A DNA stretch of 39,915 nucleotides from a virus (Duplodnaviria > Caudoviricetes). The stretch lies in the IMG/VR virus record IMGVR_UViG_3300042516_001025, positions 1 to 39,915 of that record; one strand, written 5' to 3'. This document shows, one piece after another, positions 24,108 to 33,742 of this stretch. Below the pieces are notes generated by a model, which did no database searches, was not told where the DNA came from, and worked only from the letters and a program-made list of their open reading frames with translations. The position numbers and the translations under genes are program-made. Position 1 is the stretch's first letter. The number at the start of each line of letters is the position of its first letter.

Positions 24108-27100
24108 ATGAGCCAATTCTCGTTCTTCCCGCAGCCTGACGGCACTGACCCACTGGCCGATTCGCTGACGCAGTACAGGAGGAGCAAGAAGGCGCTGGGC
24201 CAGCGTTCGCCTGAAGACAAGCGGTTCATGGATCTTGGTCGTGCGTTTGCTGACATGATCGGCAGCGTCGAGCCAACGAATCTCCTGTCCATTGGCGGGA
24301 TCGCTGAAGAGTTCGGCGATGTCACCAAGTTCATCGACCGTGCGAAGACGATCAACACGCGAAGTGATCTGGAAGAGGAACTGTCTTCCGGGATCCTCAG
24401 CCCACAGGAGGCTGAACTCAAGCAGCAGCAGATCGACTTCCTCGACAAGTTGGTGCAGCGCGAGTCGGAGCAACAGGATGTTGCCCGCGATGCGGAGATC
24501 GCAGAGACCGGCGTCGTCGGCATGTTCGGCGAGGGTGTCAAGGCAGGCGTAACGCAGGGCGTTATCAGCACCCTTCGCGGCATCAACAACCTGACCCCGT
24601 TCGACGGGGATGCGTTCTGGAGCGGGGCGCAGCGCGAGTCTGGCAAGGCGATTCCCGAGGGAAGCATTGCCGGCAACATCGGTCAAGCGGTCGGCAGCGG
24701 CGCGTACAGCGCGGCTGCGTTCGCGGCCAGCCCGTATGTCGGCATTGCTGCGATGGGCTTGCAGGGCTACGGCGGTGGCATCGACGAGTACGAGCAGGCG
24801 TTCGCTGCTGGCCTGACGACTGGCGACTACAGCAAGTTTGAGAAGGTCACAGCCGGTCTGACCAGCGCGGCGATCGAGGCGGTGACCGAACGGATCGGCG
24901 CTGGTGTCGCTCAGAAACTCGCCAAGACCGGTGTCGCGCAATGGTTCGCGCAGCCGGGGGCGCGGGCAATCGTCAAGACTGTTGGTGGAATGTATGGGGC
25001 CGAGGCGCTTGAGGAAGGTCTTGTCCCGATCTTGCAGGCTGGCGTCAAGGCGACTGGCATCACTGGGATGCAGGTTGAGTCGTGGGGCGATGTGTTCTCG
25101 CAGGCTGCGACGGACGCTCTCTACGGCGGGTTCGGTGGCTTCGGCGCTGCCGGTGTCAATATCCCTGTTGAACTGTCCCGTCGCCGCGAGACCAACCGTC
25201 TGCTTCGCGAGGCCGGCAGCAAGTACGCCGATCCCGACTACATCCGCGAGATTCTCCCGCAGCGTGCAGCCGCTCTCGACGCGATGACGCCACAGGAACG
25301 TCTTGCAGAAGAGCAGCGATCCCAGCAGGCTCTGATGCAGGCAGGCGCTGACCTCGCACGATCCAAGGAGGCGGTAGCCAATTCCAGCGCGGAAGTCACG
25401 CAGAAGCGCAAGGAACTGGAGCGATCACGCCGAGGCAAGGATCAGCAGCGCACTCAGGCTCTTGAAAACGAAGTATCTACGCTGGAGGCAGCACTGGAGA
25501 ATGCGCGGCGGGTTGCCGCGACAACGGCTGCCGATTACTCAGCGTCGCAACTGAACTATCTCAGTGCTGCGAGTATTGCGTCGAGCGCCCGCCCGACGAG
25601 CCAGATGTCCTCCGCCGACATCCTCGCCAGCATGAACTACCAGCCGGCGTCTGCTGCGACAAAGCAGCAGAAGGCAGCGCAGGCACAGATCGAGAAGTTG
25701 GGCTTCAAGGTCCAGTGGTACGACGGCACTGATGCAAAGCCTGCATTCTTCAGCGGCCAGACGCCGGACACGGTGTTCCTTCGCGCCGATGGCAACAGCA
25801 CGTTCGCTGGCATCATGGGACTCGCGTTCCATGAGATCACGCACTGGGCGCAGTTCAGCGACAGTGGCCTGTGGGCTGCCCTTCGCAGCACAGTGGACGA
25901 CAAGTCAATGCTGGAGGCGGCGGCCAACTACTGGTCGCAGCAGGCCGGCATCGACCCGGTCGTCCGGCGTTCTATTGCTGAGATCATTGCCCAGTCGCAG
26001 GGCAAGGCCGGGTCCACCGAAGCGGTTGACCAGATCGAGCAGCGCATGGCTGGCACGATGGCCGAGGTCGAGGGCGTCGCCCAGTTGATCCAGAACGGAA
26101 CGGAGGCTCTGTTCCGTGGCGACGCCGTACCCGGCTGGTTCAACCAGATGTTGATCCGCGCTGGCGTCCGTGGTCGTTCGGCGATGAGTGCGCTCAAGTT
26201 GTACCGTGGCCTGCAAGAGGCAGCCAAGAACAACAAGGCGTACAGCCCGGGCAAGTTCGGGTTCACGATCGAGGCCGCGCAGCGTGGCCTTGAGGTCATG
26301 CGTGCCGCACGGGAGGCGGCCATGTCCCAGCCGCAACCGGCCCAGCCGGCCCCCGCGTCCACTGCGACGCCCACCCCTCAGCCCGCGCCTGCGCCTGCTG
26401 CCGCAACACCTGCGGCTCCGGCTCCGGCCCCGGCTGCTGGTCAACCCGCGCCAGCCCCGGCACCTGCTCCGGCTCCCGCGCCCGCTCCTGCCCCAGCGCC
26501 AGCCCAACCGGCAGGCCAAGTTGACCGTGATACCGCCCTGCGCGACATCTTGAACAGCGGCGGTCTCAGGGTTCAGCCGACCGCCCGCGACATCATCGGA
26601 CCGGTCACGCCAGAGTCGGAGGCCGCGATGACTCGCGCCGTGTCCACGCTTGGGCCGCAGGGCTACCGCGATGCCGTTGCCGCGATCGACCTTGCGCTTG
26701 CCGAGGTGAAGCGCGAGGACGAAGCCGCTGGTCGCCCGTACTCCTTCGATGGCGTCAGCCGCGAGGAGGTTCTGTCGCTGCTGAATCAGACTGCTCTCGC
26801 CGACGAGGGCGCGACCCTGCCAGACGGCAAGCCAGTCACGGTCACGCCGGAGCAGCGTGAACTCGCGAAGAAGGTGCGTCGTAAGGTCCGCCGCACGGTT
26901 GGCGACGACGTGGTTCTGTTCGCCCGTGGCAAGGCTGTGCCGTCAACCATTGACGCCGCTGCTTTCATCGAGAGCGCACTTGAACTGGCGAACTCCCAGA
27001 AGTGGAAGAACCAGAAACTGTTCAAGGCCGCGTTGCAGAAGATGGTCAAGGCCGTTGCTTCCAAGGAGGGGATCGACCTCACCAAGGACAGCGAGCGAGT

Positions 27101-30100
27101 CAACGACTACATCTCCCGCATGGTGGTCCGCGAGGTTCGTCGCGCACTGTCTCAGTCTGCGAACGCTGTCGGCTGGTACGACGAGAAGGTCCGCAAGGCT
27201 CTCGCTGTCGTCAGCCTGATCCACCCTGAACTCGCCGACGACAAGATGGCGCAGTTCGCGTTCAAGTGGGCGCTTGCCGTCACCAGCAACGGTGCCAAGG
27301 TCACCGACAACTTCAAGGCGGCAGAGCGTGCGTATCGCTTCTACAAGGAGAACGGCAGGCTCCCGATTGATCAGGGTACCGGCACTCCTTCTGAGGCGAT
27401 CAACGAAGCGATGGAACTGTTCAACGACCTCGTCGCCAAGTATGGCATCGAGGATGTCGAGCGGTTCATGTCCACGAAGCACACGGTGCGCGAGATCAGG
27501 AAGTACACTGGGGTCAAGCCGGGTGGTGAGTACGTTGACACCATCCTGTACGGCGCTTCGGTTGTCGGTCCAAAGATCGGCAATGGGTTCTTCGCGAACC
27601 TGTACGGCAACTTTGAACAGTTGACGATGGACCGATGGTTCATGCGGACGATTGGCCGCCTGACCGGGACGCTGATCATTCCGAAGCCGGAGGTTGTTGC
27701 CAAGCGCCGGACGCAGTTGCGTCGCATTCTCGCGGTGATGAGCGACGAACAGCGTGCGGAACTGTTCTCGACCATTGGTGTCAAGGCACCCAAACTCAAG
27801 TTGGCCGACGCCGTCGAGGGCCAGCCGGCAGAGTTCGCCATGTCGAACGACATGACGGACAAGATTGCTGAGGCGATCAAGAAGCACGTCACCGACAAGG
27901 CGACTCGCAACGTCTTCAACACGTTGTTCCCGATCGGGGATGCGTCTGCTCTGCTGCCGATTCTTGGCAAGGCCAAGGAAGGGACCGTTCGCGAAGCCTA
28001 CGGCAACGAGATCCGCAAGATCGCCAATGGCCTGTGGACTGCGAAGGACGGGCAGAAGGAGATCCCGGACGGTCCTGCCGAGCGCAACCGCCTGCGTGCG
28101 ATCTTCGCAGATGCCCTCGACGAGTTGCGTCAGGATTACCCGGACCTGACGATGGCCGATCTTCAGGCTGTTATCTGGTATCCAGAGAAGCGCCTGTACG
28201 ACGCCAGCAAGACCAAGGAGAAGAGCGAGGGTCTTGAGTACGAAGACGGCGCACCGGATTACGAAACCGCAGCCATCGAACTTGCCAAGGGTCTTGGCGT
28301 GAGCGATACTGCTATCTCAGCAGCAACGAAGGGAATCGACGATGACATATCCGCAAAGCGAGCAGCAGGAGCAGGACGAGTATCTGGTGGAACAGATGCG
28401 GGCGCTGCGGTCCAAGTCCAGTCAGCCAGAGATGTCGGAGAGCGAATCACCGGAGACCGAGGAGGGGTCCGAGCGATTGGAGCAACTACGCCGCTTGAAG
28501 GTGCGCCGGTTGTCGCAGGCGCGACCGGACCAGATCCAAGGATCGTCGCAGTCGCCGAGCGTTACGCCCAAGCCAATGGCATAAACCTCCGCCGGCAGGC
28601 GTACTACGCCACGGTTGACGAGGATCGGGCGCAGCGCATCGCCGCTGCGTATGACGCGATGCCGCACGCTCCGACTGACCCGGCTGTCGTCGAGGCGTAC
28701 CAGAACCTGATCGACCAGACGCTCGCCCAGTACCGTGCGCTTGAGGAAGCCGGCTACCAGTTCTACTTCTACGACGAGACCACCGACCCCTACGACGGCA
28801 AGCCGTGGCGTGCGCTCCGAGACCTGCGTGCGAACCAGCGCATGGCTGTGTTCGCCACGGAGGCTGGATTCGGCACCGAGCCTCTCGATGTCAGCGACAA
28901 CCCGCTGCTGGCAGACACCGGCTTGCGCTGGGCGTATGGAACGCCAGACGGCCCCACGCGCCGCGTGCTGGCGAACGACCTGTTCCGCGCTGTGCATGAT
29001 GCGTTCGGCCACAGCATGGAGGGTGCCGGCTTCCGCGCAGACGGCGAGGAGAACGCATGGCAGGCGCATGTCCGCCTGTTCACCGGCAGCGCGGTTGCCG
29101 CGCTCACATCGGAGACTCGCGGACAGAACAGTTGGCTGAACTTCGGCCCATACGGTGAGCGCAACCGCACGGCTGCCGTGCAGGACACGGTGTTTGCGCC
29201 GCAGAAGAGTGGCCTCATGCCGGCGTTCACTTGGGAAGAAGGCCGTGTACCCGACATGCCGGAGCCGACCGGCCCCGGCGGTGGCGTGACTCCGCAGCCA
29301 TCGGTGGTGTCCGCCCGCCAGCCGTCGCGTGGCATCTTCGACGTACGAAACCCACCAGTGGAATCGAAATCGAAAAGGGGTGGTGGGGCCATCATGGCGG
29401 TGATGGATTCTGACGGCGTTGTGTATTACGACGTTGATGCCAACATGCACGGCGATGTCGTCGATTCGTTCCCCGGCATCGAGGACTACATCATCGACGG
29501 TGGGTTCATCAAGGACGGCAAGTACATCATGGGTACGTCCGATGGTGGATACTCCGCATACGAGGGCGTGCCTGAGCAGATTGCTCAGGTGCGCGAGTTC
29601 ACCAAGCGGGTGAACGATCCGTCGATTCTCTCCGCCCGCCAGCCGGCACGTCCGCTTGAATCATTCACTCCAGAGTTCCGGGCTTGGTTCGGCGACAGCA
29701 AGGTTGTGGACGAACAGGGCAGGCCGATGGTTGTGTACCACGCAACATCTAACGTCATCAACGAACGCAACGAAGTTCAGCGCATGGCGAGTTTCGGGTT
29801 TGGAACTGAGTTCCGAGAGTTCGACGAGTTCATTCCAATGTCGCACTTCGGAACTGCCAAGGCGGCACGCGATCGTGCGATTTCGCGTGGCCTTCTTTCC
29901 GTCGAACCATCTTGGAAACGCCCGTTTCATCATCCGGGATCGAGGACATACCCGGTCTACCTATCGATCAAGAATCCGCTACGAGTTACTGATGCAATGG
30001 CATCCGACGAAGCGTCGATGCTTGGCGCGTTGATTCAGTTGCAGCGTGAGCGAGGCGAATACATGGACATCGACATCGATGTCGCACGATCTGAGGGTGC

Positions 30101-33100
30101 ATATGAGGCCGTTCGACGCGCCGGATACGACGGTCTCGTCTATGAGAATCGAATCGAGGACAAGGGCAATGATAGTTGGGTCATCTTTGATCCCAATCAG
30201 GCCAAGTCCATCTTCAATGAACGCCCAACGCAAGACCCACGACTGTTGGCTGCCCGGGATCCCGGCCAGCGCCGTATCGACCTTGCGTATGGGATGGGCC
30301 GTCGATCCGGCCAGCAGGCTGGTGTAGCCCGTGGGCGACAGGAGTTGCTCCCCGGCCTGATGTCTGCCGAAGAGCAGGTCGAGCGGCTCCAGCGTGCCAG
30401 AGAGGAAGTTCGCGCTCGCCGCAAGGAGGATCGCCTGCGCGAGCGTGCGAAGCGCACCGCTCTCGCTGGCCGGATGCAGGCCCGCATCGGCAGGATCATG
30501 GCTGCCGTCGAGGCGATGCGCCAGAGCGCAGACGAGGACGCCGACACCCTTATGCGCCGTGCGCTGCGCGAGATGCTGCGCCGCGAGGCCGCCGGCAGCC
30601 GCACTGGGTACGAGTTCGCTCGCCGTGAACTGACTGCGTTGAAGAGAGAAGCAGCAGACGCCGTGCGCCTGTTGCCCGCGAACATGCGCGGCAAGTACCT
30701 GAATCGCATCGCGTCAGTCCGGTCTGCCGTTGGGGTTCTTCGCATCAGCGACGCCGTCGTGCGCGACCTTGCACGGTACGAGGCTCGATCGTCCTTCAAT
30801 CGGCTGCGTCGGTTGGAGCGTCGATATGCCAGCCCACAGACCGGCATGACCAACGAACTGCGCGACCAGATCCTGCCGATCGTTCGCGCTGGTATGGCAC
30901 TGCTGGGCGGCCAGCGCCTGATGCAGTACACCGACGTGAACGACATGAGCCAGCGCATCGCTGCTGCCAATCAGTTGGCCGCACAGGCGCGTGGGATGTA
31001 CGAGCAGGAGCGCGAGAACTGGCGTGCCGATCGCGAGATGCGCCGCGAGGGCTACGCCGACGCGGCAGAGGCTCTAGCCGGGAACATCAGCCAGATGCCT
31101 GAACTCCCTCCGTCGAGGCTGTGGAGCGAGGGGCGTACCGCCGGCATGGTCGGTGCGCTGGCAATCAAGAACAGCGACATCCACACGATCGCTGCGCTCA
31201 TTGACGGGGCGATCGACGGCCCGATCCACGACATGATCCACCGGCTGTCAGCCGGCAAGGATGCCATGTACAACGATCGCCGTCGCATTGACCAGCAGAT
31301 CGACGGTCTGCTTCGTCAGGCTGGGTTCACTGGCATCGACGACTACGTCCAGCGAGGTGCCGGATACGGCGGAACTGCCGCCGCTGATGTCATCGACGTG
31401 GTGCTTGGTGGCACCGCTCGCCGTATCACGATCGGTGAGGCCATGTCTCTTGCTGCGATGGACGACACCACGCTCGCGCTGCTGGCCGACGAGAACGATC
31501 CCGAGCAGCCCGGTAGCCCGATCACGTTCAGCCGTGACGGTGGCAAGTTGCCGATTCCCGTGACCCAGCAGGAAGTCTTGGCCCTGCGTGGCCGGCTGTC
31601 TCCCGGCCAGTTGGCGCTCATCGATGGACTCAAGGGTCTGATCGACACCGAGATTCGCGAGCGTTCGTTTGAGGTGGCGTACCGAATCAACGGTCGTATG
31701 CCCGAGGCTGTCCCGGGCTACTACCCGCGCCGCCGGCTCAGTGATGCAATTGCCGGAGACACGGTGGACGTGAACGCCAATCCCGGCAACGTCGTGATGA
31801 CGATGCTCGACAACGCCGGGTTCCTCCAGCGCCGCGTCGCTAGCACCAGCCCGCTGGTGGTTGACGACCTCGTCCGCACGATCGACGGCCACGTCGATGA
31901 GGGTCTCCGGCTGATCCACATGAGCGAGCCGCTGCGCCACAGCATCACCGTGCTGCGGTCCTCCGGCGTGAAGGATGCGATGGAATCCCGGTTCGGCAGC
32001 AATTTCAACGACCAGATGCGTAAGGTCGTGTTCAACGCCGTCGGGTTGAGCGGTCGCCCGACTGGTGACCTGATCGACCGTATCAACGGGAACATCAGCG
32101 GCGCTCTCCTGATGCTGAACCCGAAGACATGGTTCCGTCAGTTGGGCGGCATCTTCCGCCTCGCCAGCGAGTTCGATACTGGAGACTGGGCAGCCGGCAG
32201 CCGGCGTTCCATCGCCTTGGCTCCGTCGCAGCGTACCGCTATGATCGATCGGATCGAGGAGACCAGCGGGTACTTCTTCGACCGCCACCGCCGTTCGCAG
32301 GTCGGGTTGTTCGCAGGTGTCATCGGTGACCCCCGTCAGAACCGTGAACGCATCGCGTCGATGCTACGGTCTCTGGCTTCTAACCTGCGTTCGGCTGTGG
32401 ATGAGGCCACGCAGGGGAACATCCAGCGCATGTTGGCGGACCTCTCTGCTGGCCGCACGAATGCGCTCACGATCCTGCGGTCGGTTGACTTCGCCCTTCG
32501 CGGCATCGACCGTCAGGTCATGCTGGCCGCGTACATGACTGCGCGTCAGTCTCTGTCGAGAACCGACCCGTCAATGGCCGAGGACGAAGCGCACGCATCG
32601 GCGTGCGTGATGGCCGAGCAGGCGTTCCGCCGCACGCAGAACGTCAGCGATCCGCTGGACGACACGGTGTTTGCTGCCGAGCAGAAGTTCTCCAAGGGCT
32701 ATGGTCGCCTGCTGTTCCCGTTCTCCAGCGATCCGCTGAAGGGCTGGAATCAGGCTCGTCGCGCAACGCTGAATCCGCAGAACGCAGGACGCACCGCATT
32801 CGCCATCGGCGCGAACATGCTGTGGAGTGCAGCCGCGAACCCGTTGAGCCTTGGACTTGCGGCCATCGGAACCGGACTGGCTGCGAGCGAGGACGAGGAT
32901 GACGAACTGCTGAAGCGTGCGCTCATGGAGAAGCAGCGCGAGGGCGCGATGCGGCGCATCGCCAACGAACTGGTCGCGAGCGCCGGCGGTTACGCTGGCA
33001 TCATTGCCGGCGACATCTACACGGCGTACCGCGCCATGAGCGACGGCTACGCGCCAGACCAGACGATCCAGTTGATGCCGCTTCAGGTTGCGAACGAGGT

Positions 33101-33350
33101 CATCCGCAGCGCATCGATGGGTGACTACGGCGCAATGGCTGGCGATCTCGCGATGATGGCTGGAATCCCGGTCACGATGCCGATCGAGTCGATCGCTCGC
33201 GATGTCGAGAAGACCATCGCCACGCCGGACTCCATCCGCAAGATCCTGCTGGCTCGCAAGCAGTCGGTCGGCCTGACCCCCGCCGAGGAGCAGCGTCTGC
33301 GCGAGGTGCAAGCCGAGATCAGGGCGCTGAAAGCACTACAAACACAGTGA
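24108..33350 (+). CDS. Large polyvalent (injected) protein with zincin HExxH, glycosylase-like, HDxxGH and ADP-ribosyltransferase-like modules
   Basis: 3080 aa. HEITH at 25830-25844; GWYD...TSNG...GPKIG.FF.NL...TMDRW...LQAVIW; VHDAFGH; FRAWFGDSKVVD..G.PMVVYH...YPVYLSIKNPL...GYDG...FDPNQ.KS. Confidence 0.85.
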   Translation: MSQFSFFPQPDGTDPLADSLTQYRRSKKALGQRSPEDKRFMDLGRAFADMIGSVEPTNLLSIGGIAEEFGDVTKFIDRAKTINTRSDLEEELSSGILSPQEAELKQQQIDFLDKLVQRESEQQDVARDAEIAETGVVGMFGEGVKAGVTQGVISTLRGINNLTPFDGDAFWSGAQRESGKAIPEGSIAGNIGQAVGSGAYSAAAFAASPYVGIAAMGLQGYGGGIDEYEQAFAAGLTTGDYSKFEKVTAGLTSAAIEAVTERIGAGVAQKLAKTGVAQWFAQPGARAIVKTVGGMYGAEALEEGLVPILQAGVKATGITGMQVESWGDVFSQAATDALYGGFGGFGAAGVNIPVELSRRRETNRLLREAGSKYADPDYIREILPQRAAALDAMTPQERLAEEQRSQQALMQAGADLARSKEAVANSSAEVTQKRKELERSRRGKDQQRTQALENEVSTLEAALENARRVAATTAADYSASQLNYLSAASIASSARPTSQMSSADILASMNYQPASAATKQQKAAQAQIEKLGFKVQWYDGTDAKPAFFSGQTPDTVFLRADGNSTFAGIMGLAFHEITHWAQFSDSGLWAALRSTVDDKSMLEAAANYWSQQAGIDPVVRRSIAEIIAQSQGKAGSTEAVDQIEQRMAGTMAEVEGVAQLIQNGTEALFRGDAVPGWFNQMLIRAGVRGRSAMSALKLYRGLQEAAKNNKAYSPGKFGFTIEAAQRGLEVMRAAREAAMSQPQPAQPAPASTATPTPQPAPAPAAATPAAPAPAPAAGQPAPAPAPAPAPAPAPAPAPAQPAGQVDRDTALRDILNSGGLRVQPTARDIIGPVTPESEAAMTRAVSTLGPQGYRDAVAAIDLALAEVKREDEAAGRPYSFDGVSREEVLSLLNQTALADEGATLPDGKPVTVTPEQRELAKKVRRKVRRTVGDDVVLFARGKAVPSTIDAAAFIESALELANSQKWKNQKLFKAALQKMVKAVASKEGIDLTKDSERVNDYISRMVVREVRRALSQSANAVGWYDEKVRKALAVVSLIHPELADDKMAQFAFKWALAVTSNGAKVTDNFKAAERAYRFYKENGRLPIDQGTGTPSEAINEAMELFNDLVAKYGIEDVERFMSTKHTVREIRKYTGVKPGGEYVDTILYGASVVGPKIGNGFFANLYGNFEQLTMDRWFMRTIGRLTGTLIIPKPEVVAKRRTQLRRILAVMSDEQRAELFSTIGVKAPKLKLADAVEGQPAEFAMSNDMTDKIAEAIKKHVTDKATRNVFNTLFPIGDASALLPILGKAKEGTVREAYGNEIRKIANGLWTAKDGQKEIPDGPAERNRLRAIFADALDELRQDYPDLTMADLQAVIWYPEKRLYDASKTKEKSEGLEYEDGAPDYETAAIELAKGLGVSDTAISAATKGIDDDISAKRAAGAGRVSGGTDAGAAVQVQSARDVGERITGDRGGVRAIGATTPLEGAPVVAGATGPDPRIVAVAERYAQANGINLRRQAYYATVDEDRAQRIAAAYDAMPHAPTDPAVVEAYQNLIDQTLAQYRALEEAGYQFYFYDETTDPYDGKPWRALRDLRANQRMAVFATEAGFGTEPLDVSDNPLLADTGLRWAYGTPDGPTRRVLANDLFRAVHDAFGHSMEGAGFRADGEENAWQAHVRLFTGSAVAALTSETRGQNSWLNFGPYGERNRTAAVQDTVFAPQKSGLMPAFTWEEGRVPDMPEPTGPGGGVTPQPSVVSARQPSRGIFDVRNPPVESKSKRGGGAIMAVMDSDGVVYYDVDANMHGDVVDSFPGIEDYIIDGGFIKDGKYIMGTSDGGYSAYEGVPEQIAQVREFTKRVNDPSILSARQPARPLESFTPEFRAWFGDSKVVDEQGRPMVVYHATSNVINERNEVQRMASFGFGTEFREFDEFIPMSHFGTAKAARDRAISRGLLSVEPSWKRPFHHPGSRTYPVYLSIKNPLRVTDAMASDEASMLGALIQLQRERGEYMDIDIDVARSEGAYEAVRRAGYDGLVYENRIEDKGNDSWVIFDPNQAKSIFNERPTQDPRLLAARDPGQRRIDLAYGMGRRSGQQAGVARGRQELLPGLMSAEEQVERLQRAREEVRARRKEDRLRERAKRTALAGRMQARIGRIMAAVEAMRQSADEDADTLMRRALREMLRREAAGSRTGYEFARRELTALKREAADAVRLLPANMRGKYLNRIASVRSAVGVLRISDAVVRDLARYEARSSFNRLRRLERRYASPQTGMTNELRDQILPIVRAGMALLGGQRLMQYTDVNDMSQRIAAANQLAAQARGMYEQERENWRADREMRREGYADAAEALAGNISQMPELPPSRLWSEGRTAGMVGALAIKNSDIHTIAALIDGAIDGPIHDMIHRLSAGKDAMYNDRRRIDQQIDGLLRQAGFTGIDDYVQRGAGYGGTAAADVIDVVLGGTARRITIGEAMSLAAMDDTTLALLADENDPEQPGSPITFSRDGGKLPIPVTQQEVLALRGRLSPGQLALIDGLKGLIDTEIRERSFEVAYRINGRMPEAVPGYYPRRRLSDAIAGDTVDVNANPGNVVMTMLDNAGFLQRRVASTSPLVVDDLVRTIDGHVDEGLRLIHMSEPLRHSITVLRSSGVKDAMESRFGSNFNDQMRKVVFNAVGLSGRPTGDLIDRINGNISGALLMLNPKTWFRQLGGIFRLASEFDTGDWAAGSRRSIALAPSQRTAMIDRIEETSGYFFDRHRRSQVGLFAGVIGDPRQNRERIASMLRSLASNLRSAVDEATQGNIQRMLADLSAGRTNALTILRSVDFALRGIDRQVMLAAYMTARQSLSRTDPSMAEDEAHASACVMAEQAFRRTQNVSDPLDDTVFAAEQKFSKGYGRLLFPFSSDPLKGWNQARRATLNPQNAGRTAFAIGANMLWSAAANPLSLGLAAIGTGLAASEDEDDELLKRALMEKQREGAMRRIANELVASAGGYAGIIAGDIYTAYRAMSDGYAPDQTIQLMPLQVANEVIRSASMGDYGAMAGDLAMMAGIPVTMPIESIARDVEKTIATPDSIRKILLARKQSVGLTPAEEQRLREVQAEIRALKALQTQ
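28342..28584 (+). CDS. Overprinted +1-frame gene nested in the polyvalent protein gene
   Basis: AAGGGA upstream of the ATG; codon bias locally switches to this frame. Confidence 0.55.
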   Translation: MTYPQSEQQEQDEYLVEQMRALRSKSSQPEMSESESPETEEGSERLEQLRRLKVRRLSQARPDQIQGSSQSPSVTPKPMA

Positions 33351-33427: not shown

Positions 33428-33742
33428 ATGCCACGCAAGAAACGACCACGCCCTCCGCGTTCGGAGAGGTATCGCACTCTCACGATTCGCAAGAGTGACT
33501 ACGACACTCTCCAGACCATCCAAGCCAATACCGGATGGTCGATGCTCCTGATCCTTCACTTCATCATCGAGCATCACCGACAGAAACTTCCAACGTCACT
33601 GACCGACGTTGGCTACGTTCGACTTGGCAACACCGTCATCCGCATGGATGAGAACAACAACATCCTTTCAATCACTGAGGAACCGAAGAATGACGACAAC
33701 CCCGACAGCATCACCGTCACGAATCCTGCACGATATGAGTGA
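33428..33742 (+). CDS. Putative ribbon-helix-helix DNA-binding regulator
   Basis: YRTLTIRKSDYDTLQTIQANTGWSMLLILHFII fits a strand-helix-G-helix pattern; first gene after the promoter. Confidence 0.55.
   Translation: MPRKKRPRPPRSERYRTLTIRKSDYDTLQTIQANTGWSMLLILHFIIEHHRQKLPTSLTDVGYVRLGNTVIRMDENNNILSITEEPKNDDNPDSITVTNPARYE

Follow-up and report, generated by a model that had tools for sequence, protein, structure and literature searches.

A small reading frame nested in a phage polyvalent gene

We analyzed a stretch of 39,915 nucleotides (nt) from a virus of the Caudoviricetes (IMG/VR record IMGVR_UViG_3300042516_001025, positions 1 to 39,915), hereafter the window, in which an initial annotation made from the letters alone had pointed to a small gene overprinted on a linker of a 3080-amino-acid (aa) protein. 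The predicted open reading frame (ORF) of 80 aa and the AAGGGA upstream of it are both present. The nested ORF lies wholly inside the ORF at 24108–33350, overlying codons 1412–1493 on the linker between a domain with the HhH glycosylase fold and a domain with an HDxxGH motif, and its predicted product begins MTYPQSEQQEQDEYLVEQM. The features of this region are:

24108..33350, plus strand: ORF of the 3080-aa phage polyvalent (DarB-like) protein, which closes the virion structural cluster and has an ART-PolyVal match
27084..28322, plus strand: HhH-GPD DNA glycosylase-fold module, from the predicted structure (predicted local distance difference test score, pLDDT, 91)
28282..28310, plus strand: sigma-70-like site (9/12 match), a weak lead with 1 found versus 0.1 expected
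28329..28334, plus strand: Shine-Dalgarno (SD)-like AAGGGA of the nested ORF, −5.3 kcal/mol for the ATG at 28342
28342..28584, plus strand: nested ORF, +1 frame of ORF 24108–33350, 80 aa, isoelectric point 4.97
28432..28434, plus strand: a further in-frame ATG (M31), located where two peptides meet and overlying the main-frame S-A-R-D junction motif
28479..29246, plus strand: HDxxGH module, with HDAFGH at 28995–29012 followed by EE and H (pLDDT 89)

The initial annotation had also drawn attention to the second ATG. This codon does sit at the S-A-R-D module junction, but we rejected it as an independent start because it has no SD match (−0.1 kcal/mol versus −5.3 for the ATG at 28342), and it is missing in the homologous loci L055 and L057. 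An internal promoter was likewise rejected as a general feature, since the sigma-70-like site was found in 3 of 19 loci, namely the window and its two closest relatives only.

The codon composition of the locus had been described as a reversal of the pattern in the rest of the gene, with G or C at the third position (GC3) in 23/30 of the first nested codons and 10/30 of the corresponding main-frame codons. Both counts are correct, and the main-frame drop is informative: nowhere else in the gene is GC3 so low (gene mean 0.759, P = 1e-6), and A occupies main-frame position 3 in 31/81 codons versus a gene rate of 0.077 (P = 1e-14). The nested count, in contrast, is uninformative, because it corresponds to main-frame position 1, where the gene mean is 0.659 and 23/30 is ordinary (P = 0.15). 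We therefore rejected this statistic as evidence, and also the open +1 frame by itself. Stops in the +1 frame require Leu, Ile, Val or Met codons, so that a Gly/Ala/Arg linker leaves this frame open, and 70% of synonymous recodings of the window linker give an open +1 ORF. By synonymous-codon preference the nested ORF ranks second among 41 nested ATG ORFs of at least 30 codons in 16 window genes, the first one sitting in a probably mis-started gene at 33609. Because the linker amino acids alone predict an open +1 frame and the 23/30 count is ordinary, the single locus is suggestive, not decisive. It would also agree with there being no gene, in which case a linker poor in Leu, Ile, Val and Met would leave the +1 frame open and the codon skew would reflect an RNA or DNA signal.

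The upstream module had been called glycosylase-like, and structure comparison supports a predicted HhH-GPD fold. Its best match was 3n0u (Z 10.6, root-mean-square deviation (rmsd) 4.3, 199 residues aligned), a Z that is middling for a helical model, and structural ranks 1–23 were all glycosylases or relatives of that fold. With Foldseek neither module had a match at E 0.001, the same top protein reaching only E 0.38 with the glycosylase module. The family has a catalytic Lys in the HhH and a downstream Asp; K164 and D183 (module numbering), invariant in 55 glycosylase-module sequences, may be the equivalent pair.

The HDxxGH module has a confident model and no clear structural relative among 48,161 chains (best Z 2.9). 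PDB sequence searches with alignments A1 and A2 gave no significant match. Comparison with the zincin fold of PprI gave a weak match (Z 2.1, rmsd 4.6, 84 aligned). The motif reads H-D-x-x-G-H in 33/33 aligned sequences, in which E-E and H are also invariant, and not HEXXXH with its catalytic Glu, the variant of the zincin-like MPTase described in PMC5512222. That the module is a metallopeptidase variant is a guess. The domain occurs in 199 Mycobacterium phage records, and in mycobacteriophage Astraea (gp103–gp104, L135:1261–2774) it opens a 433-aa gene that is followed by a coupled 70-aa acidic gene.

Conservation and selection of the +1 frame

To go beyond the single locus, we compared homologues of both junctions. 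On the glycosylase side there were 80 viral loci. The module end served as an anchor in 75 of them and in the window, and 57 of these anchored loci were non-redundant. A +1 ATG ORF was present at the junction in 47/57 loci versus 17.8 expected under synonymous recoding, and a +2-frame ORF in 0/57. On the HDxxGH side, 53 viral loci plus the window were reduced to 32 non-redundant ones, and a +1 ATG ORF reached the module in 27/32 versus 12.6 expected. Because the search windows on the glycosylase side were chosen after the first homologues had been seen and the loci are related by descent, the test was repeated unchanged on held-out metagenome loci. From 80 such loci on the glycosylase side, 24 were non-redundant and 22 testable, and of the latter 20 carried the +1 ORF (6.9 expected), 17 of them with an SD (3.3 expected). 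Control positions inside the glycosylase module gave 0/24 (1.1 expected) and 4/23 (1.9 expected).

Within the window's clade (at least 40% identity) the ribosome-binding site, the ATG and the open +1 frame are all conserved, a check that the initial annotation had proposed: the ORF occurs in 25/26 loci, is preceded by an SD of −5 kcal/mol or stronger in 21/26, and starts exactly 19 nt past the module end in 14/26. The nested peptides of this clade have a P-x-S-x-Q-E-x-H-N-E-like motif in common, over a main frame that is variable. A programmed frameshift at the glycosylase end, yielding a shortened polyprotein with a peptide tail and no separate protein, would account for the fixed position at the module end, and the +1 frame is indeed open from 28303, upstream of the ATG. 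However, the ATG position and the SD are conserved, and in GenBank record MW202722 several +1 ORFs follow one another stop to start, every one preceded by an SD, so that we regard a frameshift as most improbable.

At the HDxxGH junction the four-fold degenerate sites are locked, with an entropy of 0.87 (14 columns) versus 1.56 (93 columns) in 29 sequences. The locked main-frame sites have, for instance, A in 13/13 and 19/22 Gly codons and G in 19/19 Ala codons, and in several columns of the 29 aligned sequences the +1 residue is better kept than the main-frame residue.

Selection in each frame was compared by the ratio of nonsynonymous to synonymous differences (pN/pS), as uncorrected proportions from three sequences (window, L055 and L057). 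The ratio was 0.53 in the +1 frame and 0.99 in the main frame over nested codons 1–30, and 0.62 and 1.19, respectively, over codons 31–60. The module cores showed the normal pattern (main frame 0.50 and 0.23, +1 frame 1.0 and 2.0). For the end of the nested ORF the values were:

28522..28584, plus strand: codons 61–80 of the nested ORF, pN/pS 0.43 in the main frame and 1.35 in the +1 frame, the main frame being constrained and the +1 frame not selected

Because purifying selection in the +1 frame is confined to codons 1–60, the functional peptide is aa 1–60 and the remainder is read-through. Six variants within the nested ORF from three metagenomes, a part of those recorded (there are 13 further rows) and with codon effects read by hand, add no stop; one removes the internal Met19.

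Searches of Pfam, PHROGs and NCBIfam gave no match for the nested peptide, nor any relation to known immunity families. A single relative, P0001, emerged from a protein search with it; its automatic assignment to the PDCD5/TFAR19 family was not accepted because the protein is a single member from a 1015-nt contig with no Pfam support. A profile built from 33 nested tail peptides of the glycosylase side, all of them from clades further away, had 12 matches among 1.84 billion proteins, of which 11 are small, separately called, unnamed proteins. A nested ORF is annotated in 0/6 of the GenBank stretches examined.

Altogether, the recoding null is rejected across homologues and codons 1–60 are under purifying selection in the +1 frame, so the nested ORF behaves as a selected gene, and we conclude that it is very probably a real small gene. 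The window-only null, the ordinary GC3 count and an RNA contig that misses the ORF fit the absence of a gene. The rejection of the null also at held-out glycosylase loci, the +1 pN/pS below that of the main frame, a start region that folds less than its shuffles (z 1.37) and relatives that gene callers independently called as proteins make that absence very improbable.

Two peptides tied to the flanking modules

The initial annotation had allowed for two fused small proteins, and this option is supported, as the nested ORF comprises two peptides, each tied to one flanking module:

28348..28398, plus strand: peptide 1, glycosylase-tail peptide (aa 3–19), P-x-S-x-Q-(E/Q)-x-(H/Q)-(N/D)-E-x-(L/M) in the clade alignment
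28450..28512, plus strand: peptide 2, HDxxGH-head peptide (aa 37–57), P-E-T-E-E-x-G-x-R-x-E-x-L-R-R-L-x-x-R-R-L

Comparison of the head and tail peptide profiles revealed no relation between them. In MW202722 (L137) they are separate ORFs, a tail peptide with an SD of −11.0 and a head peptide with an SD of −12.2 (profile E 1e-18). A third +1 ORF with an SD (L137:4386–4592) comes after the domain that separates the glycosylase and HDxxGH modules there and ends beside the head-peptide start; none of the 3 ORFs is annotated. The fused form of both peptides was found in L006, L008, L055, L057, L212 and L268. P0001 shares the first 36 residues of the window peptide and then diverges, which puts a swap at the peptide seam. 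The cultured Limnohabitans phage DC33 (PQ492659, L134) carries an unannotated 71-aa +1 ORF (L134:3651–3866) with an SD of −8.3 after its glycosylase module.

Other +1 peptides were seen at related loci. Ahead of the HDxxGH module in L005, L007 and L020, the head peptide is fused with a different peptide of about 60 aa that belongs to another upstream module, and this represents a third module-borne family. Distant HDxxGH loci (L138, positions 1103–1312, L153, L163, L169 and L040), cyanophage Pag-Yong1 among them, have in common a different acidic peptide in the +1 frame ahead of the domain, and its SD is strong in several of them. The tail peptides of L088, L106, L123, L125, L221, L250, L251 and L134 have a common C-terminal helix pattern with an aromatic-Gly end (e.g., ...AEKFGF), which suggests a further fused peptide family.

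The position of the tail ORF is fixed across 27–60% module identity, and tail peptides persist ahead of many different downstream domains. In 10/10 loci of the 76 anchored first-set loci in which the glycosylase ends its gene, the +1 ORF runs 118–223 nt past the stop (these 10 loci are partly redundant, several being near-duplicates), and a small gene thus stands directly downstream of a gene-ending enzyme domain, as in toxin-immunity pairs. The head motif occurs in 26/32 HDxxGH loci, 19 of which have no glycosylase motif in the 600 nt upstream. A partner ORF is nearly always present with the glycosylase (47/57 loci and 20/22 held-out loci), in line with the proposal that the peptide travels with its adjacent module, but the HDxxGH-head peptide is not universal (11/36 held-out loci).

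These observations can be accommodated by a model in which each enzyme module was once a gene of its own, overlapped at its end or its start by a small partner gene. On fusion of the modules into a single long ORF, the partner genes would have remained in the +1 frame and the main frame would read through them as a Gly/Ala/Arg linker, because acidic helical peptides spell such residues one base back. In the window lineage the glycosylase-tail and HDxxGH-head peptides would then have been fused into the 80-aa ORF with a single start. The peptide would be translated from the same late mRNA, bind the enzyme domains and inhibit them during synthesis, its acidic helix 1 suiting the DNA cleft of the glycosylase, and the peptide would be left behind when the polyprotein is packaged and injected, so that enzyme activity begins only in the next cell infected. 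We infer such an effector-antidote arrangement, and give even chances to the idea that the peptides are cognate inhibitors buried when the modules fused.

Two points favour inhibition: in the free-standing loci the enzyme comes first and the small gene second, and a DNA glycosylase needs to be restrained. An enzyme gene followed by a small gene is the usual toxin-immunity order. This order speaks against a peptide that binds the neighbour domains as a chaperone, a packaging or ejection adaptor or an activator, which would nevertheless show the same module linkage and has precedents in TraH, which stabilises the relaxosome (PMC7314908), and GndA, which relocalises the product of its host ORF (10.64898/2026.10.22.760973); we consider such a role unlikely. 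Co-folding of the glycosylase module, the HDxxGH module and peptide aa 1–62 gave complex scores of 0.81, 0.80 and 0.83, with 0.00 and 0.00 for unrelated partners and 0.71, under the required margin, when the peptide was kept and the glycosylase replaced, so that these scores bear neither for nor against binding.

Several results weigh against the inhibitor model. On the HDxxGH side, 6/32 first-set loci lack the head motif, and held-out genome contigs showed no excess of the ORF (11/36 testable versus 9.1 expected). The head-peptide profile is clade-limited, matching 11/13 loci at 63% identity or above and 0/36 others. Octadecabacter virus BD1, Mel-JY33 and mycophage Astraea gp103 have no head peptide, although the HDxxGH motif of gp103 is intact, so the domain can exist without it. 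Moreover, part of the head-profile score comes from codons over the conserved start of the HDxxGH domain, and part of the head motif overlies the structured PLEGAP stretch, over which constraint is stronger in the main frame than in the +1 frame (pN/pS 0.55 versus 0.85). On the glycosylase side the tail peptides are very diverse in sequence. In a search of 21,992 pieces, the 33-sequence tail profile found 3 free-standing ORFs at E 0.17–0.56 and a fourth at E 18, with the other 6 outside the top 85, and it does not match peptide 1 of the window. Because these matches are so weak, the tail position is conserved far better than the sequence. A simple antidote rule is thus weakened, since the head peptide is dispensable and the tail peptides are diverse. 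The RNA contig examined misses the nested ORF (RNA runs share at most 16% of words), and linkage to the modules is equally expected from hitch-hiking in a shuffled domain-plus-linker unit.

Some of these points would suit real small genes with a job of their own, such as host takeover, counter-defence or regulation, lodged in linkers, which alone tolerate overprinting, and moved by recombination of domain plus linker. HDxxGH domains without a head peptide, tail peptides too diverse for a single profile, linkers filled by trains of several unrelated +1 ORFs (L137 and the L005 type) and the sigma-70-like site that the window shares with its two closest relatives ahead of the ORF all fit such genes. 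They do not readily explain why the tail ORF keeps its position as the module diverges and is retained beyond the stop where no linker is needed, or why the head motif stays with its module under differing upstream domains (19 loci), and we judge independent genes possible, if rather unlikely.

Known systems, genomic setting and implications

The 3080-aa protein resembles the polyvalent proteins of phages and conjugative elements, in which enzymes are injected with the virion (PMC5512222). It is multi-domain and lies in a virion gene cluster, and it fits this class because it has an ART-PolyVal domain and a HEXXH motif at aa 575; together with the glycosylase fold, several enzyme domains thus reside in one phage polypeptide. 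The passages of that work that we consulted describe no nested genes, and neither 'glycosylase' nor 'linker' appears in its main text. Upstream of the gene are matches to terminase, portal, major head, adaptor and tail-fibre proteins, and downstream are exonuclease and Erf genes; from its place in this cluster, the protein is probably packaged and injected with the genome. The ADP-ribosyltransferase domain lies here:

29709..30230, plus strand: ART-PolyVal ADP-ribosyltransferase domain of the 3080-aa protein, aa 1868–2041 (PF18760, E 7e-12)

The window contig is 63% G+C, and lake and freshwater metagenomes hold near-identical DNA. A contig with a 100% identical HDxxGH module (L166) was binned in a Pirellulales genome, which is a weak hint of the host. 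An (S/A)-A-R-(P/D/Q) motif occurs in the main frame at domain borders of the giant protein (window positions 25584, 28422, 29310, 29631 and 30249). The pattern has 6 matches, one of which is within the ART domain at 29862 and one exactly at the nested-peptide seam, and it is possibly a processing site. At 33609–33742 a 32-codon ORF in another frame has better codon use than the exonuclease VIII-like gene, whose listed TTG start is probably too early.

Out-of-frame nested genes and in-frame intragenic antitoxins are already known. In the phage lambda, Rz1 is embedded in the +1 frame of Rz, and in polymorphic toxin cassettes an enzyme domain is followed by a downstream immunity gene. Both have a small overlapping partner gene, whereas in the window the partner is buried inside a continuing ORF.

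Other known cases are plasmid-borne or chromosomal. The acidic TraH is encoded in another frame within traI of the IncP plasmid RP4 (PMC7314908), and comS in srfA (PMC11230408) and gndA in gnd (10.64898/2026.10.22.760973) are experimentally shown nested small genes, on the same strand, frameshifted, fully nested and with a function linked to the pathway of the host gene. The window ORF shares the marks of these genes, as it lies inside a longer ORF, has its own conserved start and ribosome-binding site and is under purifying selection in codons 1–60. However, traH/traI is a plasmid relaxosome system in which a stabilising protein has one fixed partner, and comS and gndA are chromosomal single cases, which are neither carried by modules nor fused in one genome and split in another, whereas the window has a phage virion polyprotein with shuffled modules, each with its own peptide. 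In the Rpn host defence system (RpnS/RpnL), a small protein, RpnS, is translated from inside an enzyme gene as an intragenic antitoxin (10.1101/2023.05.02.539157). Here too a small protein from inside an enzyme gene is proposed to block that enzyme, but RpnS is in frame and equals the C-terminal domain of the toxin, while the window peptide is out of frame, phage-borne and unrelated in sequence to the enzyme. Because it is in the +1 frame, the window ORF does not belong to the Rpn type, although its mode of action may be similar. Our literature search, with most subscription journals outside its coverage, found no report of nested genes in phage polyvalent proteins.

Polyvalent proteins bring several potentially harmful enzymes into virions, and the sparing of the producer cell and of the phage DNA is at issue. 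A conserved peptide at specific module edges makes a direct comparison possible between the module alone and the module with its peptide. Limnohabitans phage DC33 provides a cultured system for the nested peptide, and Astraea a tractable one for the function of the HDxxGH domain. The finding also means that gene callers miss a class of proteins within polyvalent genes and that what looks like a 'linker' can arise as a by-product of another gene. More generally, and with considerable doubt, polyvalent proteins may be fossil operons of effector-antidote pairs, in which every module keeps at its edge the +1-frame gene of its cognate inhibitor, low-complexity linkers arise from reading through these genes, and module fusion can fuse antidotes into a multivalent inhibitor, as it would have done in the window. 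If this is true, the hidden peptides would amount to a large inhibitor library that lacks annotation, with a new class directed against HhH glycosylases among them.

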